Below, one piece after another: positions 4,059 through 37,906 of a stretch of 64,000 nucleotides of DNA. The notes beneath the pieces were generated by a model. That model was not told where the DNA came from and did no database searches. It saw only the letters and a list, made by a program, of their open reading frames with translations. Origin of the DNA: Candidatus Methylomirabilota bacterium (lineage in GTDB: Bacteria; Methylomirabilota; Methylomirabilia; Rokubacteriales; DASRDR01); contig DATAFX010000093.1 of NCBI GenBank assembly GCA_036257195.1, positions 2,308 through 66,307 on the forward strand, given 5' to 3'. The first letter of the stretch is position 1; the number at the start of each line of letters is the position of its first letter. Position numbers and translations under genes: made by a program.

Positions 4059-4745
4059 TCAGCGCGCCGCCCGAGCCCGGGCGAGTCGCCCGAGCATCCA
4101 GACGTGGGTCACGATGATGATCGGGACGACGAACGTCAGGAGGAGGGAGAGCGGGAGCTGGAGCAGCGCCCGCATCGACTCGGGGTCACCGAAGGCGAGG
4201 CGGGCCGCGGTCAGCACCACCGCCAGGATGTCGAGCAGGCCGACGACGTTCCAGACGAGGTACGCCCGACGGCCGCCCGGTCGGTCGGGCCGGACGAGCA
4301 TGACCAGGAGCAGGCCCGTGGCGGCCACGACGTTGTCTCCCCAGCCCCCCGGCACGGCGAAGGCCCAGGGCAGCTCACCCCGGGCATGGAGGACGAGGAA
4401 GTAGAAGCCCACGAAACGCGTGAGGTGGAAGAGCACCAGCGCGCGCAGGTCCACGGTCCAAACGAAGCGCCGGAGCGTCGGCCAGGCCAGGGGAGCCACG
4501 AGCAAGGCGAGGGTCACCCCGACGAGGACCAGTTGCGGCGCCGGCGGTCGGAGGGTCGTCAGCCGGCCGGATGCCCCGATCAGCCAGGCCGCCCCGAGCC
4601 ACGCGCCGGCGGCGCTCAGAACGGCGCGCGTGCCGCGTGGCCCCCACGGTGCGATCGATCCGACTCGGTCGCCGTCGCGGGGTCCCACATCCGTCGTATA
4701 CCACGCGCGGTCGGCCACCGACCACGGACTCGTCCGATCGCCCAT
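4059..4745 (-). CDS. Hypothetical polytopic membrane protein
   Basis: The C-terminal 228 aa of the 303-aa ORF, starting at MGDRTSPW (CAT at 4743-4745), have 5-6 hydrophobic helices (LVLVGVTLALLVAPLAW..., FVGFYFLVL..., LLLTFVVPIIIVTHVWMLG). The N-terminal 75 aa of the ORF are Arg/Ser-rich and not credible. The start is uncertain; it overlaps the divergent CoA-transferase start. Confidence 0.5.
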   Translation of the reverse strand: MGDRTSPWSVADRAWYTTDVGPRDGDRVGSIAPWGPRGTRAVLSAAGAWLGAAWLIGASGRLTTLRPPAPQLVLVGVTLALLVAPLAWPTLRRFVWTVDLRALVLFHLTRFVGFYFLVLHARGELPWAFAVPGGWGDNVVAATGLLLVMLVRPDRPGGRRAYLVWNVVGLLDILAVVLTAARLAFGDPESMRALLQLPLSLLLTFVVPIIIVTHVWMLGRLARARAAR

Positions 4746-6045
4746 GCCCTTGCGGTGGAACCGCCGGTTCCCTATCGTAGCCCCTGTGTCGAGCCCGGGC
4801 TTCCTGCGGGGCGTGACGGTTCTCGACTTCACGCGCGTGCTCGCCGGTCCGTATTGCACGAGGCTCCTCGCCGACCTCGGCGCCCGCGTGATCAAGGTCG
4901 AGCGGCCGCGGGGTGACGACACGCGGGCGGGACCCCGCCAGCTGGATCCGGATCGGACGGACCAAAGCACCTATTTCGTCCGCGTCAATGCCGGCAAGCA
5001 GTCCGTCGCGCTCGACCTCGAGCATCCCGCCGGCCGCGCCGTTGCGTTGGACCTCGTCCGGGTGGCCGACGTTCTCGTCGAGAACTTCCGGCCCGGCGTC
5101 ATGACCCGGCTCGGGCTCGACTACGAGGCGGCCGCCGTCGTCCGGCCGGATCTCGTCTACTGCTCCATCTCGGGCTACGGGCAGACCGGCCCGTGGCGCG
5201 ACCGTCCGGCGTTCGCTCACGTTGTGCACGCGACCTCGGGCCTGATGCATCTCGAGCGGGGCGCGGACGAGCCCCCCCGGGTCCTGTATCTCCAGGCCGC
5301 CGACGTGCTCGCCGGCGTCCACGCGTTCGGAGCCATCGCGGCGGCACTGCTCCGCCGTGCCCACAGCGGTCGGGGCGCGCACCTCGACGTGTCGATGCTG
5401 GAGGCGCTGATCGGTGCGGAGGACATCAGCTTCGGCAGCGCCCTCAACGACGGACCGTCGTATCCGGGTCCCCGCAGCGGGATGATGGTCGAGCAGGTCG
5501 GCGACGGATGGGTGGCGTGTCAGGTCGTCGGCGTGCTCGACCTCTGGCCGCGGCTTCTCGAGCTCCTCGAGCGCCCCGAGCTCGAGGCCGATCCCCGCTT
5601 CGCGACGCCGGTCGGTCGTCGGGAGCACTGGGCCGAGCTCCGTGCCATCATCTCGACGTGGCTCGGGCGCTTCAGCTCGGTCACGGAGGCCCTGGCCGCC
5701 CTCGGCGCGGCCCGGATTCCGTGCGCGCCCGTGCTCTGGCCGGACGAGGTGGTTGCGGCGCCCCACCTCGAGGCGCGCCGGGCGTTCCCCTCGGTGCCCC
5801 ACCCGACGCACGGCGCCATACGGGTGACCGCGTCGCCGCTGCACGTGGACGGCGAGCCGGTCGCGCCCGCCGGGCCCGCGCCGTATCGGCCGGGGGAGAA
5901 CACGCGGGACGTGCTCGCCGACGTGCTGGGCTATCGTCCCGACTGGATCGCGGAGCTCGCGCGCCAGGGCGCGGTGGCGGGCCCTAGCCTGTCCACGCCC
6001 GGCTCGCCGGGTGACCCCCTGGCCGGCACCCCGCGCGGCGAGTAG
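4744..6045 (+). CDS. CoA-transferase family III (CaiB/BaiF-like)
   Basis: MPLRWNRRFPIVAPVSSPGFLRGVTVLDFTRVLAGPYCTRLLADLGARVIKVERP... is the signature N-terminus of family III CoA transferases, and the protein has full-length similarity. The long Arg-rich N-terminal extension in the ORF track is rejected. The start is ATG 4744 or a nearby GTG. Confidence 0.85.
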   Translation: MPLRWNRRFPIVAPVSSPGFLRGVTVLDFTRVLAGPYCTRLLADLGARVIKVERPRGDDTRAGPRQLDPDRTDQSTYFVRVNAGKQSVALDLEHPAGRAVALDLVRVADVLVENFRPGVMTRLGLDYEAAAVVRPDLVYCSISGYGQTGPWRDRPAFAHVVHATSGLMHLERGADEPPRVLYLQAADVLAGVHAFGAIAAALLRRAHSGRGAHLDVSMLEALIGAEDISFGSALNDGPSYPGPRSGMMVEQVGDGWVACQVVGVLDLWPRLLELLERPELEADPRFATPVGRREHWAELRAIISTWLGRFSSVTEALAALGAARIPCAPVLWPDEVVAAPHLEARRAFPSVPHPTHGAIRVTASPLHVDGEPVAPAGPAPYRPGENTRDVLADVLGYRPDWIAELARQGAVAGPSLSTPGSPGDPLAGTPRGE

Positions 6046-35261: not shown

Positions 35262-35428
35262 TTTCCCTCCCGCCTCCGGGCGTCGTGCGCCCGACGTGCA
35301 GCCAGGCTTGGCGGACACTCTAGCCCTCTCCCGCGACCGGACGCAAGGGAATCGGCGGGCTTCGTTCCCGCTCGCGGCCGGGCGCCCGCCGCCCCCCCCG
35401 ACGGCGCGCGGCCCTATACTAGTGAGCT

Positions 35429-35806
35429 GTGAGCGATCCGATCCCGGCCTGGGCGTGGGTCCTGATCGAGGACTACGTGGACCGGTCCCTCGAGGGTCGC
35501 GGTACGGCGAGCCCGACGGCGATGGAAACGCTGGCCGAGGTGGCGCGACTGTGGCCCGATCTGTCGTGCACGATTCTGGTCCAGGAGCCATGGCAGGGTA
35601 CGGTCCGCTTCAAGCGGCTTCTCCGCCTGCGCGGTGACGCGATGCGGCCGTTCCTGGAAGCCCCGGAGGCGTTCATCCGGGACCGCTTCGGCGGCGGGAA
35701 GTTCAAGCTGAACATCCACCACGGCATGCACTTCGTGAACACCAAGAACTTCAAGCCCGAGGGTCCGGCGCGCTGGCAGGCGGTCCCCGAGCTCGTGGAG
35801 GACTGA
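35429..35806 (+). CDS. Hypothetical protein
   Basis: 125 aa with balanced composition (MSDPIPAWAWVLIEDYVDRSLEGRG...). GTG start. First of three tightly packed unknown ORFs. Confidence 0.5.
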   Translation: MSDPIPAWAWVLIEDYVDRSLEGRGTASPTAMETLAEVARLWPDLSCTILVQEPWQGTVRFKRLLRLRGDAMRPFLEAPEAFIRDRFGGGKFKLNIHHGMHFVNTKNFKPEGPARWQAVPELVED

Positions 35807-35807
35807 C

Positions 35808-36068
35808 ATGGCCGAGGACGCGACGCGACGGCTCCTAAGGGTCTTCGGCATCGCGGTAACGGAATGCGAGGACGCACTCGACCTCGTGGAGGTCACCCTC
35901 CGCGACCAGGGCCCGGGCGCGGCGTCCGGTCCGTCGCTGGAGGCCTACGAGCGGGCTGCCCGCGAGCTCGAGACCCGCTGGACGGAGGTCGAACGCCTGA
36001 TCCAGGGCTATCAGTCCCGGGCGCGCGCGGCGCTCCTGGCGGGCCTCCGAACGCGCGGCGTCGCCTGA
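35808..36068 (+). CDS. Hypothetical small protein
   Basis: 86 aa. The ATG lies 2 nt after the upstream stop. Helical composition. Confidence 0.4.
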   Translation: MAEDATRRLLRVFGIAVTECEDALDLVEVTLRDQGPGAASGPSLEAYERAARELETRWTEVERLIQGYQSRARAALLAGLRTRGVA

Positions 36069-36081
36069 GGCGGGGGTATCC

Positions 36082-36501
36082 GTGACCCGCGATCGTTTGC
36101 TCCGCCCGCGCTGGCTGGTTTGGTTCCTGATCGCCTGGAGTTTCGCCATCGCCTCGGTTCCGCGCCTGTCCGAGGCCGCGCCGCTCCCCCCGATCCGAAG
36201 CGCCGATGCCTCCGGTGACCGCGGGGCGATCCACGCGCTGCTCGAGCGTCGCCTCGTTCGCGCGCAGCTCGCCGCCCTCGGGGTGTCGGAGGCGGAGGCC
36301 GCGAAGCTCTGGGAGCGCCTCACCCCGGCCGAGCGCGCGGAGCTGACGGCGCGAGCGGACGAGCTCGGCGCGGGCGGCGATCCAGTCGCCGCGGGGATCG
36401 CGATCGCCATCGTCGTGGCGATGTTCGTGATCCTCGCCCTCGAGCTCATCGGCCGCCGCGTCATCTCCCAGCCGGAGGGAGCCTCCGGGGTCAAGCCTTG
36501 A
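36082..36501 (+). CDS. Hypothetical exported/membrane-anchored protein
   Basis: 139 aa with an N-terminal signal-like helix (WLVWFLIAWSFAIASVP) and a C-terminal TM (AAGIAIAIVVAMFVILALELIG). Confidence 0.45.
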   Translation: MTRDRLLRPRWLVWFLIAWSFAIASVPRLSEAAPLPPIRSADASGDRGAIHALLERRLVRAQLAALGVSEAEAAKLWERLTPAERAELTARADELGAGGDPVAAGIAIAIVVAMFVILALELIGRRVISQPEGASGVKP

Positions 36502-36593
36502 AGGGGGTCAGGCCTTGACTTTGACTCCCCGACACTCTGGCGGAGATGGCCGATGGGCGAGATGCATGGAAGACAAAGTCAAGGCCTGACCCC
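36490..36593. promoter_or_regulatory. Reiterated near-palindrome GTCA(A)GGCCTTGAC forming a 20-bp perfect inverted repeat around the start of the downstream gene
   Basis: GGGGTCAGGCCTTGACTTTG (36504-36523) is the exact reverse complement of CAAAGTCAAGGCCTGACCCC (36574-36593). A third degenerate copy GTCAAGCCTTGAA sits at 36490-36502. TTGACTTTGACT is a tandem repeat. The putative ATG at 36553 lies in the 50-nt spacer. Confidence 0.6.
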
Positions 36594-37413
36594 GAGGCGC
36601 GATGCGAGCGGGGTGCTGGTCGCGGTGCCGGCGCGTCCCACGCGCATCGTGTCGCTCGTCCCGAGCGTCACGGAGCTCCTGTTCACGCTCGGGCTGGACG
36701 ACCGGATTGCCGGCGTCACCGTTTTCTGAACCGAGCCACGGGCCAGGGTGGCCCGGGTCTCCAAGGTCGGCCGCGAGAAGGATCCCGACCTCGCCCGCAT
36801 CCGGGCGCTGACGCCAGATCTGGTCGTCGCCAACATGGAGGAGAACCGCCGCGACGTGGTGGACGCCCTGCGCGGGGCGGGCGTCGCGGTGTGGGTCACG
36901 TTTCCTCGGACCGTGGCGGAGGGAATCGAGCTCGTCCGGGAACTCGGGGCGCTGACCGCGGCGGAGGCGGCGGCCGAGCCGCTGGCCCGGTCACTCGAAA
37001 CGACCCGCGCGACGGTCCTGGCCCGCATGGCCGGGCGATCCCGGGCCCGCGTGTTCTGTCCGATTTGGCGCGGCCCCTACATGACGGTCAACCGGGACAC
37101 CTACGTCCACGACATGCTGGTGACCTGCGGTGGCGAGAACGTGTTCGCCGATCAGACGGCGCGCTACCCGACGGTGACCCTCGACGCCGTGCGCTCCGCC
37201 GCGCCGGACGTCATCCTGCTGCCGGACGAGCCCTTCCGGTTCCGCGCCGCGCACCGGGCGGACTTCGCGCCGCTGGCCGACGTGCCGGCCGTCCGGGCCG
37301 GTCGGATCCACTTGGTGGATGGCAAGCTACTCAGCTGGTACGGGCCGCGGATCGCCGAGGCGCTGGAGCGGCTACCCGCCCTCCTTTCCGGAGGCGCCCG
37401 GCTCGATCGGTGA
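36553..37413 (+). CDS. BtuF-like (PBP type III fold; cd01144-like) binding protein with in-frame TGA at 36727-36729. Candidate selenocysteine codon or disrupted pseudogene. No signal peptide.
   Basis: Frame from ATG 36553: MGEMHGRQSQGLTPRRDASGVLVAVPARPTRIVSLVPSVTELLFTLGLDDRIAGVTVF-TGA-TEPRARVARVSKVGREKDPDLARIRALTPDLVVANMEEN...GGENVFAD.... This is collinear with BtuF (RVITLSPANTELAFAAG..VGVS.YSDYP...). The TGA falls where homologues have FC(D/N/T)YP. The downstream part is the listed ORF 36748..37413. Confidence 0.55.
36739..36755 (+). other. GC hairpin CGGGCC-AGGGU-GGCCCG starting 10 nt after the in-frame UGA. Candidate bacterial SECIS-like element.
   Basis: A perfect 6-bp stem with apical loop AGGGU. 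It is extensible with a bulged A (gcc-a-cgggcc / ggcccg-ggu). The spacing matches fdhF-type SECIS geometry. Confidence 0.3.
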
Positions 37414-37906
37414 GGGCGAGTGGCTCGCGGGCGGCCCGACGGCGCGCCTCGAGCACGAGCTCGACCTCCACCGGCATCCCGCCCGCCAGGCCCTGAACCG
37501 ACCGGAGGCACGCGACAGGAGGGGCTCCCGCCGGCAGGACCGCCGCCAGGAGCGCGAGACTGTCCGCGAGGAGCGCCGGCGTGAGGCCGTCGGACGTCAC
37601 GCTCGAGACGAAGCCCACGAGAACCACGCAGCGCAGATGATCCAGCGAGCCGACCGACGCGCGGGCGGCTGCCAAGGCGTTCTGCGTGGCCAGGTGCAAG
37701 GCGCGGGCGGTGTCCTCGATCGACACCGAGCGGCCCATGCGGCCCCGGTGGGCGAGCCGGCCGTCCCGCTCAGGATCGTGCCCGGCGACGAACAGCCGGG
37801 CGCCGGAGCGCACGACGGGCACGTACTGATCCGTCGGAGGCGTCGGGGCGATTCCCGCTAGGGGATCGGGCCGCGCGGGACGCCGACGCGGCCTGGCCGA
37901 GGCCAT
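37331..37906 (-). CDS. RidA/YjgF/TdcF-family protein (paralog 1)
   Basis: The core ...YVPVVRSGARLFVAGHDPERDGRLAHRGRMGRSVSIEDTARALHLATQNALAAA...GGMPVEVELVLEA matches the RidA fold. The Arg-rich N- and C-terminal tails are of doubtful reality. The 3' end overlaps the convergent gene. Confidence 0.65.
   Translation of the reverse strand: MASARPRRRPARPDPLAGIAPTPPTDQYVPVVRSGARLFVAGHDPERDGRLAHRGRMGRSVSIEDTARALHLATQNALAAARASVGSLDHLRCVVLVGFVSSVTSDGLTPALLADSLALLAAVLPAGAPPVACLRSVQGLAGGMPVEVELVLEARRRAAREPLALTDRAGRLRKGGRVAAPAPRRSAARTS

Follow-up and report, generated by a model that had tools for sequence, protein, structure and literature searches.

The inverted repeat that brackets the start codon of a TGA-containing gene is very probably a non-autonomous mobile element, i.e. 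a REPIN-like dimer of terminal inverted repeats (TIRs) that belongs to a TIRYT/RAYT-type Y1 (HUH) transposase system of Rokubacteria/Methylomirabilota. This removes a false lead: the perfect palindrome is almost certainly no regulatory operator for the TGA-containing gene. At the same time the repeat offers a clean example, from an uncultivated soil phylum, of a REPIN-like family together with the tyrosine transposase cognate to it.

The inverted repeat and its dispersed family

In the window, i.e. the whole 64-kb stretch of DNA analysed here, GGGGTCAGGCCTTGACTTTG at positions 36504–36523 is followed after 50 nt by its exact reverse complement at 36574–36593, with 70 bp between the arm starts. 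Both the sequence itself and a repeat finder thus confirm the perfect 20-bp inverted repeat of the sequence-only reading. The same reading had judged a perfect 20-mer unlikely by chance, and this holds: two occurrences are observed in the window, while the expectation from window shuffles is 0.00, none of them matching with up to three mismatches allowed. Complementarity of the arms reaches 26 nt at 92%, which extends the left terminal repeat to GGGGTCAGGCCTTGACTTTGACTCCC (36504–36529, + strand), the first 20 nt of which are perfectly complementary to the right arm, and the right terminal repeat to GGAAGACAAAGTCAAGGCCTGACCCC (36568–36593, + strand). The 38-nt loop between them (36530–36567, + strand) holds an SD-like GGAG (36541–36544) and two ATG codons (36553 and 36562). 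Upstream of the left arm there is an older degenerate arm copy on the + strand. It had been noticed as GTCAAGCCTTGAA (36490–36502) and is better delimited as GGGGTCAAGCCTTGA (36487–36501), 93% identical to the left arm; it codes for GVKP and provides the stop codon TGA at 36499–36501. The statement that the first two copies overlap the stop codon of the preceding gene is true of this degenerate copy and not of the perfect left arm, which starts 2 nt after the stop. The TTGACTTTGACT tandem (36515–36526) does not lie immediately upstream of the repeat, as had been thought, but is the inner part of the left arm and falls within the family consensus.

The exact 20-mer is present at 21 loci of a 596-Gb genome collection, as compared to a chance expectation of about one for a 20-mer in the whole collection, and 19 of these loci are in Rokubacteria/Methylomirabilota MAGs. 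Outside this group, an Omnitrophota MAG (L016, 39.5% GC) matches with one arm only, which agrees with the approximately one chance hit expected. A Nitrospiraceae match (L008), a compact hairpin on a contig of 4 kb, might be due to mis-binning or transfer. Counted as exact 20-mer matches, there are seven copies in MFD05567.bin.2.187 and five in MAG108, spread over several unrelated loci in each, and one MAG has at least 16 arms around the exact-match seeds. Repeat clusters and tandem arrays are found at three loci (L004, L012 and L022). No further copies turned up in about 280 kb of related DNA that had been selected without regard to the repeat, and the abundance of the family appears modest.

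The consensus of 74 arms is a c followed by GGGGTCAGGCCTTGACTTTGa..TCC, also given as GGGGTCAGGCCTTGACTTTGA..TCC. Conservation stops abruptly at the outer GGGG, and positions 0–7 of the arm start GGGGTCAG are conserved in 89–100% of the 74 arms. Nearly all copies are inverted pairs with conserved arms and with spacers unrelated in sequence and length. Whole elements range from 58 to 147 nt, so that the arms keep neither a constant spacing nor a helical phase. The spacers differ completely among copies, more than in classical MITEs, and the arms could therefore be alike via selection or gene conversion instead of recent movement.

These data leave next to no probability for a local accident, i.e. 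a tandem and inverted duplication or a template switch that perfected a quasi-palindrome unrelated to any other locus. Such an origin is suggested by the 17-nt direct repeat GGGGTCAAGCCTTGA / GGGGTCAGGCCTTGA and the TTGACT tandem, which look like slippage products, and by GGCCGTGACCCC, which is already there at sites free of the element. However, TTGACTTTGA and the rest of the arm consensus, like the exact 20-mer, turn up again at unrelated loci of several genomes, and the collection search refutes this explanation.

The position of the copies bears on the function that had been proposed for the repeat, namely repression of the downstream gene by looping between two operators that lie 70 bp apart and bind a dimeric transcription factor. 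Fourteen elements start between −27 and +12 nt from the stop codon of a high-GC3 ORF, and several of them lie between co-directional genes. The genes whose stops are followed by copies are unrelated, and the sites are often inside operons, e.g. between ABC permease and ATPase genes, and not in promoter regions; stop-proximal placement has likewise been reported for REPs (PMC3733652). It is true that each arm contains the near-palindrome GTCA-N5-TGAC, that the arms of the window copy are seven helical turns apart and that the DnaA-like HTH of the transposase described below could bind double-stranded DNA. The near-palindrome is nevertheless a feature of the family's terminal repeat and not a sign of a dimeric binder at this promoter. 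The arms are TIRs of a Y1 transposase gene, and the dispersed inverted pairs have variable spacing. No promoter-like site is found in 35300–37600, no regulator gene adjoins the repeat site according to Pfam annotation, and the ancestral stop/start overlap at this locus points to one transcription unit. Searching for the motif beyond the locus, the decisive check, did find the exact 20-mer elsewhere but revealed no regulon of upstream sites, and the 64-kb window itself has no other arm site, relaxed matching included. Looping operators are thus a highly improbable explanation of the repeat.

A tyrosine transposase between the same arms

In four genomes (L022, L110, L111 and L112) a Y1 transposase gene is bracketed by inverted arms of about 27 nt. 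The upstream arm lies about 50–70 nt before the ATG of the transposase gene and the downstream arm overlaps its stop codon. The site is syntenic in all four genomes, in the order aconitase, Y1_Tnp, POR-DUF6537, with 66–97% identity, as would be expected of RAYT-type genes under vertical inheritance (PMC5581495). Transposase locus and dispersed copies occur in the same genome: MAG108 has the transposase locus L110 and the dispersed loci L009, L014, L018, L019 and L021, and MFD05567.bin.2.187 has the transposase locus L022 and the dispersed loci L010, L015, L017, L020 and L024.

The transposase of L022 (ORF 4441–5316, − strand, 291 aa) matches Pfam Y1_Tnp with E 6.8e-13. Its top NCBIfam match is the REP-associated tyrosine transposase NF047646 (REP_Tyr_transpos), with E 1.5e-19 and 70.3 bits. 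As 80 bits is the curated cut-off, we regard the protein as related to the NF047646 equivalog but not as a member of it. The HUH histidines H60 and H62 and the motif Y119-x-H-x-N-P are invariant in 20 homologues. With a profile of these 20 homologues, E. coli TnpA_REP (4er8) comes out as the best Y1 relative of solved structure, a weak match with E 0.022, and the C-terminus matches structures of DnaA domain IV with E 3.3e-6. A single-sequence phmmer search of the PDB reaches only the DnaA-like C-terminus. PF08299 is likewise weak on the single L022 protein (E 0.0043, below cut-off), and many homologues carry precomputed PF08299 annotations.

By analogy to IS200/IS605 and RAYT systems, a single chromosomal transposase would spread, or at least maintain, the copies, and it would recognise the arms on single-stranded DNA. 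As single-stranded DNA, 36500–36597 folds with z = −7.3. From this analogy we infer that the copies have been mobilised by the arm-flanked transposase. For the source organism of the window, the 64 kb covered comprise one site and no Y1 transposase gene, which counts against the mobile-element reading.

The locus in orthologues and the flanking genes

The upstream gene (36082–36501, + strand) belongs to the DUF6627 family (Pfam PF20332, E 2.5e-10). The downstream gene (36553–37413, + strand; the start could be 36562) encodes a Peripla_BP_2 protein (Pfam PF01497), a 'helical backbone metal receptor', and its in-frame TGA at 36727–36729 is aligned with Cys in orthologues. P0011 of a Methylomirabilota MAG is a 100% identical, truncated call of this binding protein with 221 aa. 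The Rfam scan finds no cobalamin riboswitch upstream of the gene. The start codon had been placed between the arms at ATG 36553, which is indeed in the spacer, but a second in-frame ATG at 36562 is there as well. In the translation of 36502–37413 these two are the sole in-frame ATG, GTG or TTG codons 5' of the conserved DASG strand, and DASG...RIVSL is conserved down to 58% identity. L035, the sole compared orthologue with an intact element, keeps gcgagATG(c/t)atGGAAG, which corresponds to ATG 36562 and not to ATG 36553.

Conservation of the repeat at orthologous genes, which the sequence-only reading had proposed to check, is partial, and the site is polymorphic for presence and absence of the element. 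Four orthologous loci (L003, L025, L028 and L037) are free of it: the DUF6627 ORF ends with ...ISRP* in a GTGA stop/start overlap with the next gene. The last eight codons of the DUF6627 gene in the window (EGASGVKP) and its stop are missing there; they are read from repeat-derived DNA. L035 has the intact element with perfect 20-nt arms and a spacer largely different from that of the window copy. An extra arm copy followed by a full element is found in the window and in L030, two elements in L031, a solo arm in L033 and L041, and decayed copies in L001, L029 and L032; L001 carries the same degenerate variant (A at position 8) without the perfect pair. Judging by these orthologues, the original state is one transcription unit in which stop and start overlap.

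It is likely that an ancestral element landed in the GTGA overlap between the DUF6627 and binding-protein genes. As a consequence, the DUF6627 ORF would now enter the old arm copy and stop at the TGA of that copy, while the binding-protein gene would start at the spacer ATG with the right arm translated approximately as GRQSQGLTP at the N-terminus of the protein. The N-termini of many orthologues of the binding protein (RGLSPP, RQALTP, SQGLTP) look like decayed translations of the right arm. The perfect 20-nt match would then reflect the conserved arm of the family and not a regulatory design specific to this locus. It is important to note that GGCCGTGACCCC, present at sites without the element, is similar to the arm end GGCCTGACCCC. 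It may represent a preferred target, or a scar left by excision, and the change at this site may therefore have been an insertion or an excision. Asymmetric excision leaving about 6 bp has been described for REPINs (PMC3116915). The locus is a small and well-resolved example of how two coding sequences have absorbed a mobile palindrome, with element-free, intact, solo and decayed states visible in relatives. For annotation it matters that, in these MAGs, the elements give rise to spurious ORF extensions, displaced start codons and broken gene calls.

Whatever the origin of the element, the hairpin could now act in the mRNA as an exapted intercistronic stabiliser, processing site or translational coupler. 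In the coupling version, a ribosome terminating at TGA 36499 would melt the 5' arm and free the start of the binding-protein gene. The long RNA stem proposed earlier is also predicted by folding, with −67.6 kcal/mol (z = −4.85) for 36480–36610 and −52.3 kcal/mol for the 90-nt element. The proximity of the stop to the 5' arm, the SD-like GGAG and both ATGs in the loop, and the loop ATG and perfect arms kept by L035 despite its diverged remaining spacer all agree with a role in RNA. So do the arm mismatches that are compatible with G·U pairing, 15 in the sense and 4 in the antisense direction among 14 elements with supported gene direction, and REPs have been reported as RNA elements downstream of genes (PMC3733652). 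On the other hand, folding is more favourable for the sense than for the antisense strand in just 9 of these 14 elements, which is not significant, and the window copy is not among the nine, its antisense strand reaching −56.7 kcal/mol. The G·U bias may come from a subfamily master copy and not from independent selection, and orthologues do with the GTGA overlap or with a decayed element. Taken together, we find an exapted RNA element rather unlikely as the explanation of the repeat. On the mobile-element reading, it would be a by-product that the intercistronic transcript can fold into a hairpin (about −52 kcal/mol) whose loop contains the start codon. This hairpin may modulate mRNA stability or translational coupling, and a local RNA-level effect is plausible.

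An intrinsic terminator, which requires a GC-rich stem-loop with a U-tract right behind it, was considered for the window copy. This copy is not a canonical terminator since no U-tract follows directly (GAGGCGCGAT is next on the + strand), and a terminator scan of the copy gives only a short antisense match inside the right arm. Some family members do have T-rich tails, e.g. GGACTTTGAT and GTTGTTTGAGCTTTT. Rfam has no match above the gathering threshold for the window element; eukaryotic miRNA hairpin models score below threshold (29 bits vs at least 70), and these are generic hits to a long hairpin.

Comparison with known systems

Di Nocera et al. (2013) described RAYT-like genes, termed TIRYTs, that are flanked by long TIRs with the motif GGGGWSAS (PMC3733652; motif also in PMC6006769). 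The TIRs occur as singles, dimers and clusters in families of moderate abundance, and examples of TIRtrons and TIRYTs come from Stenotrophomonas maltophilia K279a and Koribacter versatilis (PMC3733652). The system described here shares with them a RAYT-like Y1/HUH gene between long terminal inverted repeats, one of which extends over the 3' end of the gene. At the outer end, the arm start GGGGTCAG agrees with GGGGWSAS, and TIR copies are dispersed in moderate numbers in the transposase-bearing genome, as seen in related MAGs. Unlike in published TIRtrons, the spacers of the dimers are very variable and the window copy is absorbed into two coding regions. The host lineage is also new: our literature search found no description of TIRtron/TIRYT families in Rokubacteria/Methylomirabilota.

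As in the REPINs of Pseudomonas fluorescens SBW25 with their RAYTs (Bertels & Rainey 2011, PMC3116915), a conserved inverted doublet encloses a less conserved spacer and is predicted to form a hairpin in ssDNA or mRNA. Further common features are the extragenic and dispersed location, tandem clusters, singlets that look like decayed doublets, and the same sequence flanking an apparently single Y1 gene at a conserved chromosomal site (PMC3116915). The arms differ from those of REPINs in having no GTAG/GT[AG]G tag, and a single arm is not a convincing palindrome. Spacer length is variable, whereas the GI REPINs of SBW25 have a fixed 71-bp register (PMC3116915). Copy number, with 5–7 exact 20-mers per MAG, appears far below the hundreds in Pseudomonas, and the transposase is of Group 1 / subclass 2.1 type, not of Group 2 or 3 as the RAYTs of REPINs. 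We do not file the element as a classical GTAG-tagged REP because its arms start with GGGG and are mostly not self-complementary, GTCA-N5-TGAC being the only such part within an arm.

With E. coli REPs and BIMEs the family has in common that palindromic repeats lie between co-transcribed genes just after stops, and the cognate TnpA_REP of E. coli is the closest solved Y1 relative of the transposase. REPs and BIMEs of E. coli stabilise upstream mRNA and bind host proteins. Their sequence is unrelated to that of our arms; they are single palindromes of 35–40 nt combined into BIMEs and are far more abundant. Rickettsia palindromic elements (RPEs) and MITEs such as NEMIS/Correia are likewise small palindromes at or inside ORFs that provide coding or expression signals. 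RPEs are distinguished by a CGTC tag and by having no dedicated transposase. In MITEs the internal sequence is conserved and target-site duplications occur, and we see neither in the present family. Integron attC sites and CRISPR do not fit either, as neither a GTTRRRY/RYYYAAC core nor an array with equal spacers is present and the genes on both sides are syntenic housekeeping genes.

Judged by its domain content, with a Bac_DnaA_C-like HTH at the C-terminus, the transposase belongs to TnpA_Y1 subclass 2.1 / RAYT Group 1. In this TIRYT / subclass 2.1 branch the dispersal of flanking repeats has been reported only patchily. A more far-reaching possibility, which we consider unlikely, is that a TIRYT-type element has been domesticated at the window locus. 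It would have replaced the GTGA coupling of DUF6627 and a candidate selenoprotein gene, would supply the RBS, the start and the first approximately ten codons of the latter, and its hairpin would tie initiation to upstream termination. On this reading, the Rokubacteria family would also show clearly that transposases of subclass 2.1 with a DnaA-like HTH do disseminate REPIN-like doublets. Quentin et al. (2018) assigned proteins with DnaA_C/HTH, and most TIRYTs, to TnpA_Y1 subclass 2.1 and reported no REP-like sequences next to the genes of this subclass (PMC6006769). In contrast, the repeat that flanks the transposase gene here is clearly a dispersed family.

The inverted repeat and the genes it separates

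The inverted repeat at 36504–36593 is one copy of a REPIN-like dimer of terminal repeats that belongs to a known type of tyrosine-transposase system. Its left 20-mer, GGGGTCAGGCCTTGACTTTG (36504–36523, plus strand), has an exact reverse complement at 36574–36593, with a gap of 50 nt between the two 20-nt arms. The repeat finder extends complementarity to 26 nt at 92% (36504–36529 and 36568–36593, loop of 38 nt) and detects a direct copy, GGGGTCAAGCCTTGA, upstream of the left arm at 36487–36501. In 100 of 100 window shuffles the 20-mer had 0 matches with ≤3 mismatches allowed, and the shorter GTCARGCCTTGA has three sites in the 64 kb, all at the first copy and the two arms. The RNA fold of 36480–36610 reaches −67.6 kcal/mol (z = −4.85) and the ssDNA fold of 36500–36597 has z = −7.3. 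Sequence, repeat finder, shuffles and folds thus bear out the perfect inverted repeat claimed in the sequence-only reading; its striking perfection has an ordinary explanation, and the feature is real and was correctly spotted. The TTGACTTTGACT tandem, placed upstream of the repeat in that reading, actually forms the inner portion of the left arm. Of the two copies said to overlap the preceding stop codon, the degenerate first copy does so (TGA 36499–36501) and the perfect left arm does not. Just 5′ of the first copy there is also a perfect palindrome, CCGGAGG-gag-CCTCCGG (36466–36486), within the C-terminal extension of the DUF6627 protein and kept in the orthologous locus L001.

Upstream of the element lies the DUF6627 ORF (36082–36501, plus strand) and downstream the gene of a Peripla_BP_2 binding protein, whose C-terminal 221 aa match a 'helical backbone metal receptor' from a Methylomirabilota MAG (P0011) at 100% identity. 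The strand ...DASG..V.(V/L)P..P.RIVSL of this protein is kept in orthologues down to 58% identity, therefore its translation starts upstream of 36598. Between the upstream stop and 36598 the only in-frame ATG, GTG or TTG codons are ATG 36553, with GGAG 8 nt 5′ of it, and ATG 36562. Both are inside the spacer between the arms, so the start codon is indeed bracketed by the repeat. The second ATG is conserved in L035, the sole compared orthologue with an intact element. Note that the DUF6627 and binding-protein ORFs are in one reading frame with a single TGA (36499–36501) between them; read-through of this codon, if any, would give a fusion of the two proteins via a repeat-encoded linker. Both genes are part of a four-gene block common to Rokubacteria contigs (125-aa protein, 86-aa protein, DUF6627, binding protein), compared in the window (35429–37413) and in L001, L025, L028 and L029. 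The block adjoins an opposite-strand HD-domain (HD_5) gene and two RidA/YjgF-like genes; the 125-aa and 86-aa proteins have no Pfam match.

The binding-protein gene contains an in-frame TGA at 36727–36729, and gene callers shorten its product to 221 aa. At the TGA position of the motif GVT.F[U/C].EP, compared in L035–L066 and other loci, 32 distinct orthologues have a Cys codon (TGC/TGT) and 23 have TGA. In the TGA forms a conserved hairpin, ...GAGCCGCGGGCCCGGGTGGCCCG..., begins ~7 nt downstream (36733–36761 in the window); taken alone, its fold scores no better than shuffled sequence (z = −0.77). The Sec/Cys pattern suggests a selenoprotein form of a cytoplasmic 'helical backbone metal receptor'. 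A brief literature search, with selenoproteome papers outside its scope, gave no listing of such a form.

A dispersed family of arms

When one genome per species was scanned (596 Gb; chance expectation ~1 match), the exact 20-mer was found at 21 loci, 19 of them in Rokubacteria/Methylomirabilota MAGs. Several unrelated loci are present per genome, with seven exact copies in MFD05567.bin.2.187 and five in MAG108. The design is nearly everywhere the same: an arm GGGGTCAGGCCTTGACTTTGA(C/T)TTCC, an unrelated spacer and the complementary arm, the whole element being 58–147 nt long across the family. The arm consensus is c|GGGGTCAGGCCTTGACTTTGa..TCC (n = 74 arms), with conservation that ends sharply at the outer GGGG and fades past ~25 nt. 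Clusters and tandem arrays of arms occur at three loci (L004, L012, L022). At the orthologous-position pairs L007/L010, L020/L021 and L009/L015 the arms are kept and the spacers now differ in both sequence and length. Fourteen elements start −27 to +12 nt from the stop codon of an ORF whose third codon positions are strongly GC-biased, and several of these sit between co-directional genes, e.g. ABC permease/ATPase genes (L014, L017). Dispersal, architecture and positions together identify a family of dispersed palindromic repeats, to which the window element belongs.

The sequence-only reading had taken the arms as a pair of operators acting by DNA looping and the motif sites as a regulon. The genome scan gave dispersed inverted-pair repeats instead. 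Family sites located after stop codons, the variable arm spacing, the lack of promoter-like sequence found near the element and a presumed ancestral state of a single transcription unit all count against looping, which we regard as very improbable. A putative RNA-level role of the hairpin at the window locus is possible. Arm mismatches are G·U-compatible 15 times in the sense versus 4 times in the antisense strand of the 14 elements with supported gene direction. In only 9 of these 14, and not in the window copy, does the sense strand fold more stably than the antisense strand, and the window copy is without a U-tract.

Two exact 20-mer matches are outside Rokubacteria. In a Nitrospiraceae MAG (57% GC; L008, 2295–2340) a 4-kb contig carries the copy as a compact hairpin, GGGTCAGGCCTTGA-ctttgaca-TCAAGGCCCGAC; the match in an Omnitrophota MAG (39.5% GC; L016, 3337–3357) is a single arm surrounded by AT-rich DNA. 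Chance (~1 expected), mis-binning or transfer could account for them.

History of the junction

The DUF6627/binding-protein junction, compared in 80 orthologous metagenome loci and those from protein look-ups, is polymorphic. An element-free junction, ...ATCTCCCGGCCGTGACCCCGCG..., with stop and GTG start overlapping as GTGA, is found in L003, L025, L028 and L037. L035 has an intact element with perfect 20-nt arms (GGGGTCAGGCCTTGACTTCC / GGAAGTCAAGGCCTGACCCC), from both of which the TTTGAC hexamer is symmetrically missing; only the 3′ part of its spacer is in common with the window (gcgagATG(c/t)atGGAAG). The extra left-arm copy together with the full element is present in the window and L030, and in L001 the first copy is kept and the remainder has decayed. 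L033 and L041 have a solo arm, GTCAAGCCCTGACCCC, apparently left by a deletion between direct GTCAAG(G)CC repeats. The element is strongly decayed in L029 and L032, and L031 has two elements at the junction. Many orthologues have N-terminal residues (RGLSPP, RQALTP, SQGLTP) that resemble the translated right arm in more or less decayed form. Given this range of states and the arm-like N-termini, the element is an old, repeatedly remodelled resident of the junction. It extended the C-terminus of the DUF6627 protein by 8 residues, up to the arm TGA, and supplied the binding protein with a new start and about ten new N-terminal residues; this absorption into two coding sequences is mildly notable. 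The element-free allele, whose GGCCGTGACCCC resembles an arm end, is either ancestral or an excision scar; asymmetric REPIN excision leaving about 6 bp has been described (PMC3116915).

The cognate transposase and known systems

At locus L022 seven arms in 8 kb flank a 900-bp segment left empty by the GC3 filter, within which lies a 291-aa transposase ORF (4441–5316, minus strand). The protein matches Pfam Y1_Tnp (IS200-like; E 6.8e-13), and its C-terminal region resembles the DnaA DNA-binding domain. All 20 aligned homologues share the HUH histidines and the Y-x-H-x-N-P tyrosine motif without variation, and the profile built from them has E. coli TnpA_REP (4er8) as best solved Y1 relative, a weak match (E 0.022). 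Homologues of 66–97% identity come from three further genomes. In all four genomes the gene is located between the aconitase and POR/DUF6537 genes and is enclosed by two mutually inverted copies of the repeat arm, the first ~50–70 nt before the ATG and the second overlapping the stop codon. The MAG108 assembly contains the flanked transposase and five dispersed loci together. By analogy with the IS200/IS605 and RAYT literature, the transposase would recognise the arms on single-stranded DNA and may be responsible for spreading or maintaining their copies. In L022 the terminal repeat encodes the transposase C-terminus (ETKVEA*) including the stop codon, and an ~82-nt tandem duplication (4340–4500) takes in the downstream terminal repeat together with the final 18 codons of the transposase gene.

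Literature searches found no earlier description of such a system in Rokubacteria/Methylomirabilota. REPINs are defined as two inverted, highly conserved REP sequences with a less conserved spacer; they fold into hairpins as ssDNA or within mRNA, and have an associated, flanked RAYT gene (Bertels & Rainey, PMC3116915). RAYTs typically occur as one copy per genome and are inherited vertically (PMC5581495). The Rokubacteria repeat fails tests for a classical GTAG REP, and the top NCBIfam match of the L022 protein, 'REP-associated tyrosine transposase', is below the equivalog cut-off (70.3 versus 80 bits); we therefore file the family as TIRYT-type and REPIN-like. TIRtrons, which encode TIRYTs, are RAYT-like genes flanked by long TIRs rather than GTAG-tagged REPs; many of these TIRs share a GGGGWSAS motif, and they make up families of moderate abundance that comprise singles, dimers and clusters (Di Nocera et al., PMC3733652). 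Most TIRYTs fall in TnpA_Y1 subclass 2.1, equal to RAYT Group 1, the hallmark of which is a C-terminal Bac_DnaA_C/HTH extension (Quentin et al., PMC6006769). The Rokubacteria system agrees with these descriptions where compared: its arm starts with GGGGTCAG, one of the two TIRs extends over the 3′ end of the transposase gene, and the TIR has dispersed copies in the form of dimers and clusters; as in subclass 2.1, the transposase has a DnaA-like C-terminus. The clear evidence for dispersal of subclass 2.1/TIRYT repeats is mildly notable.
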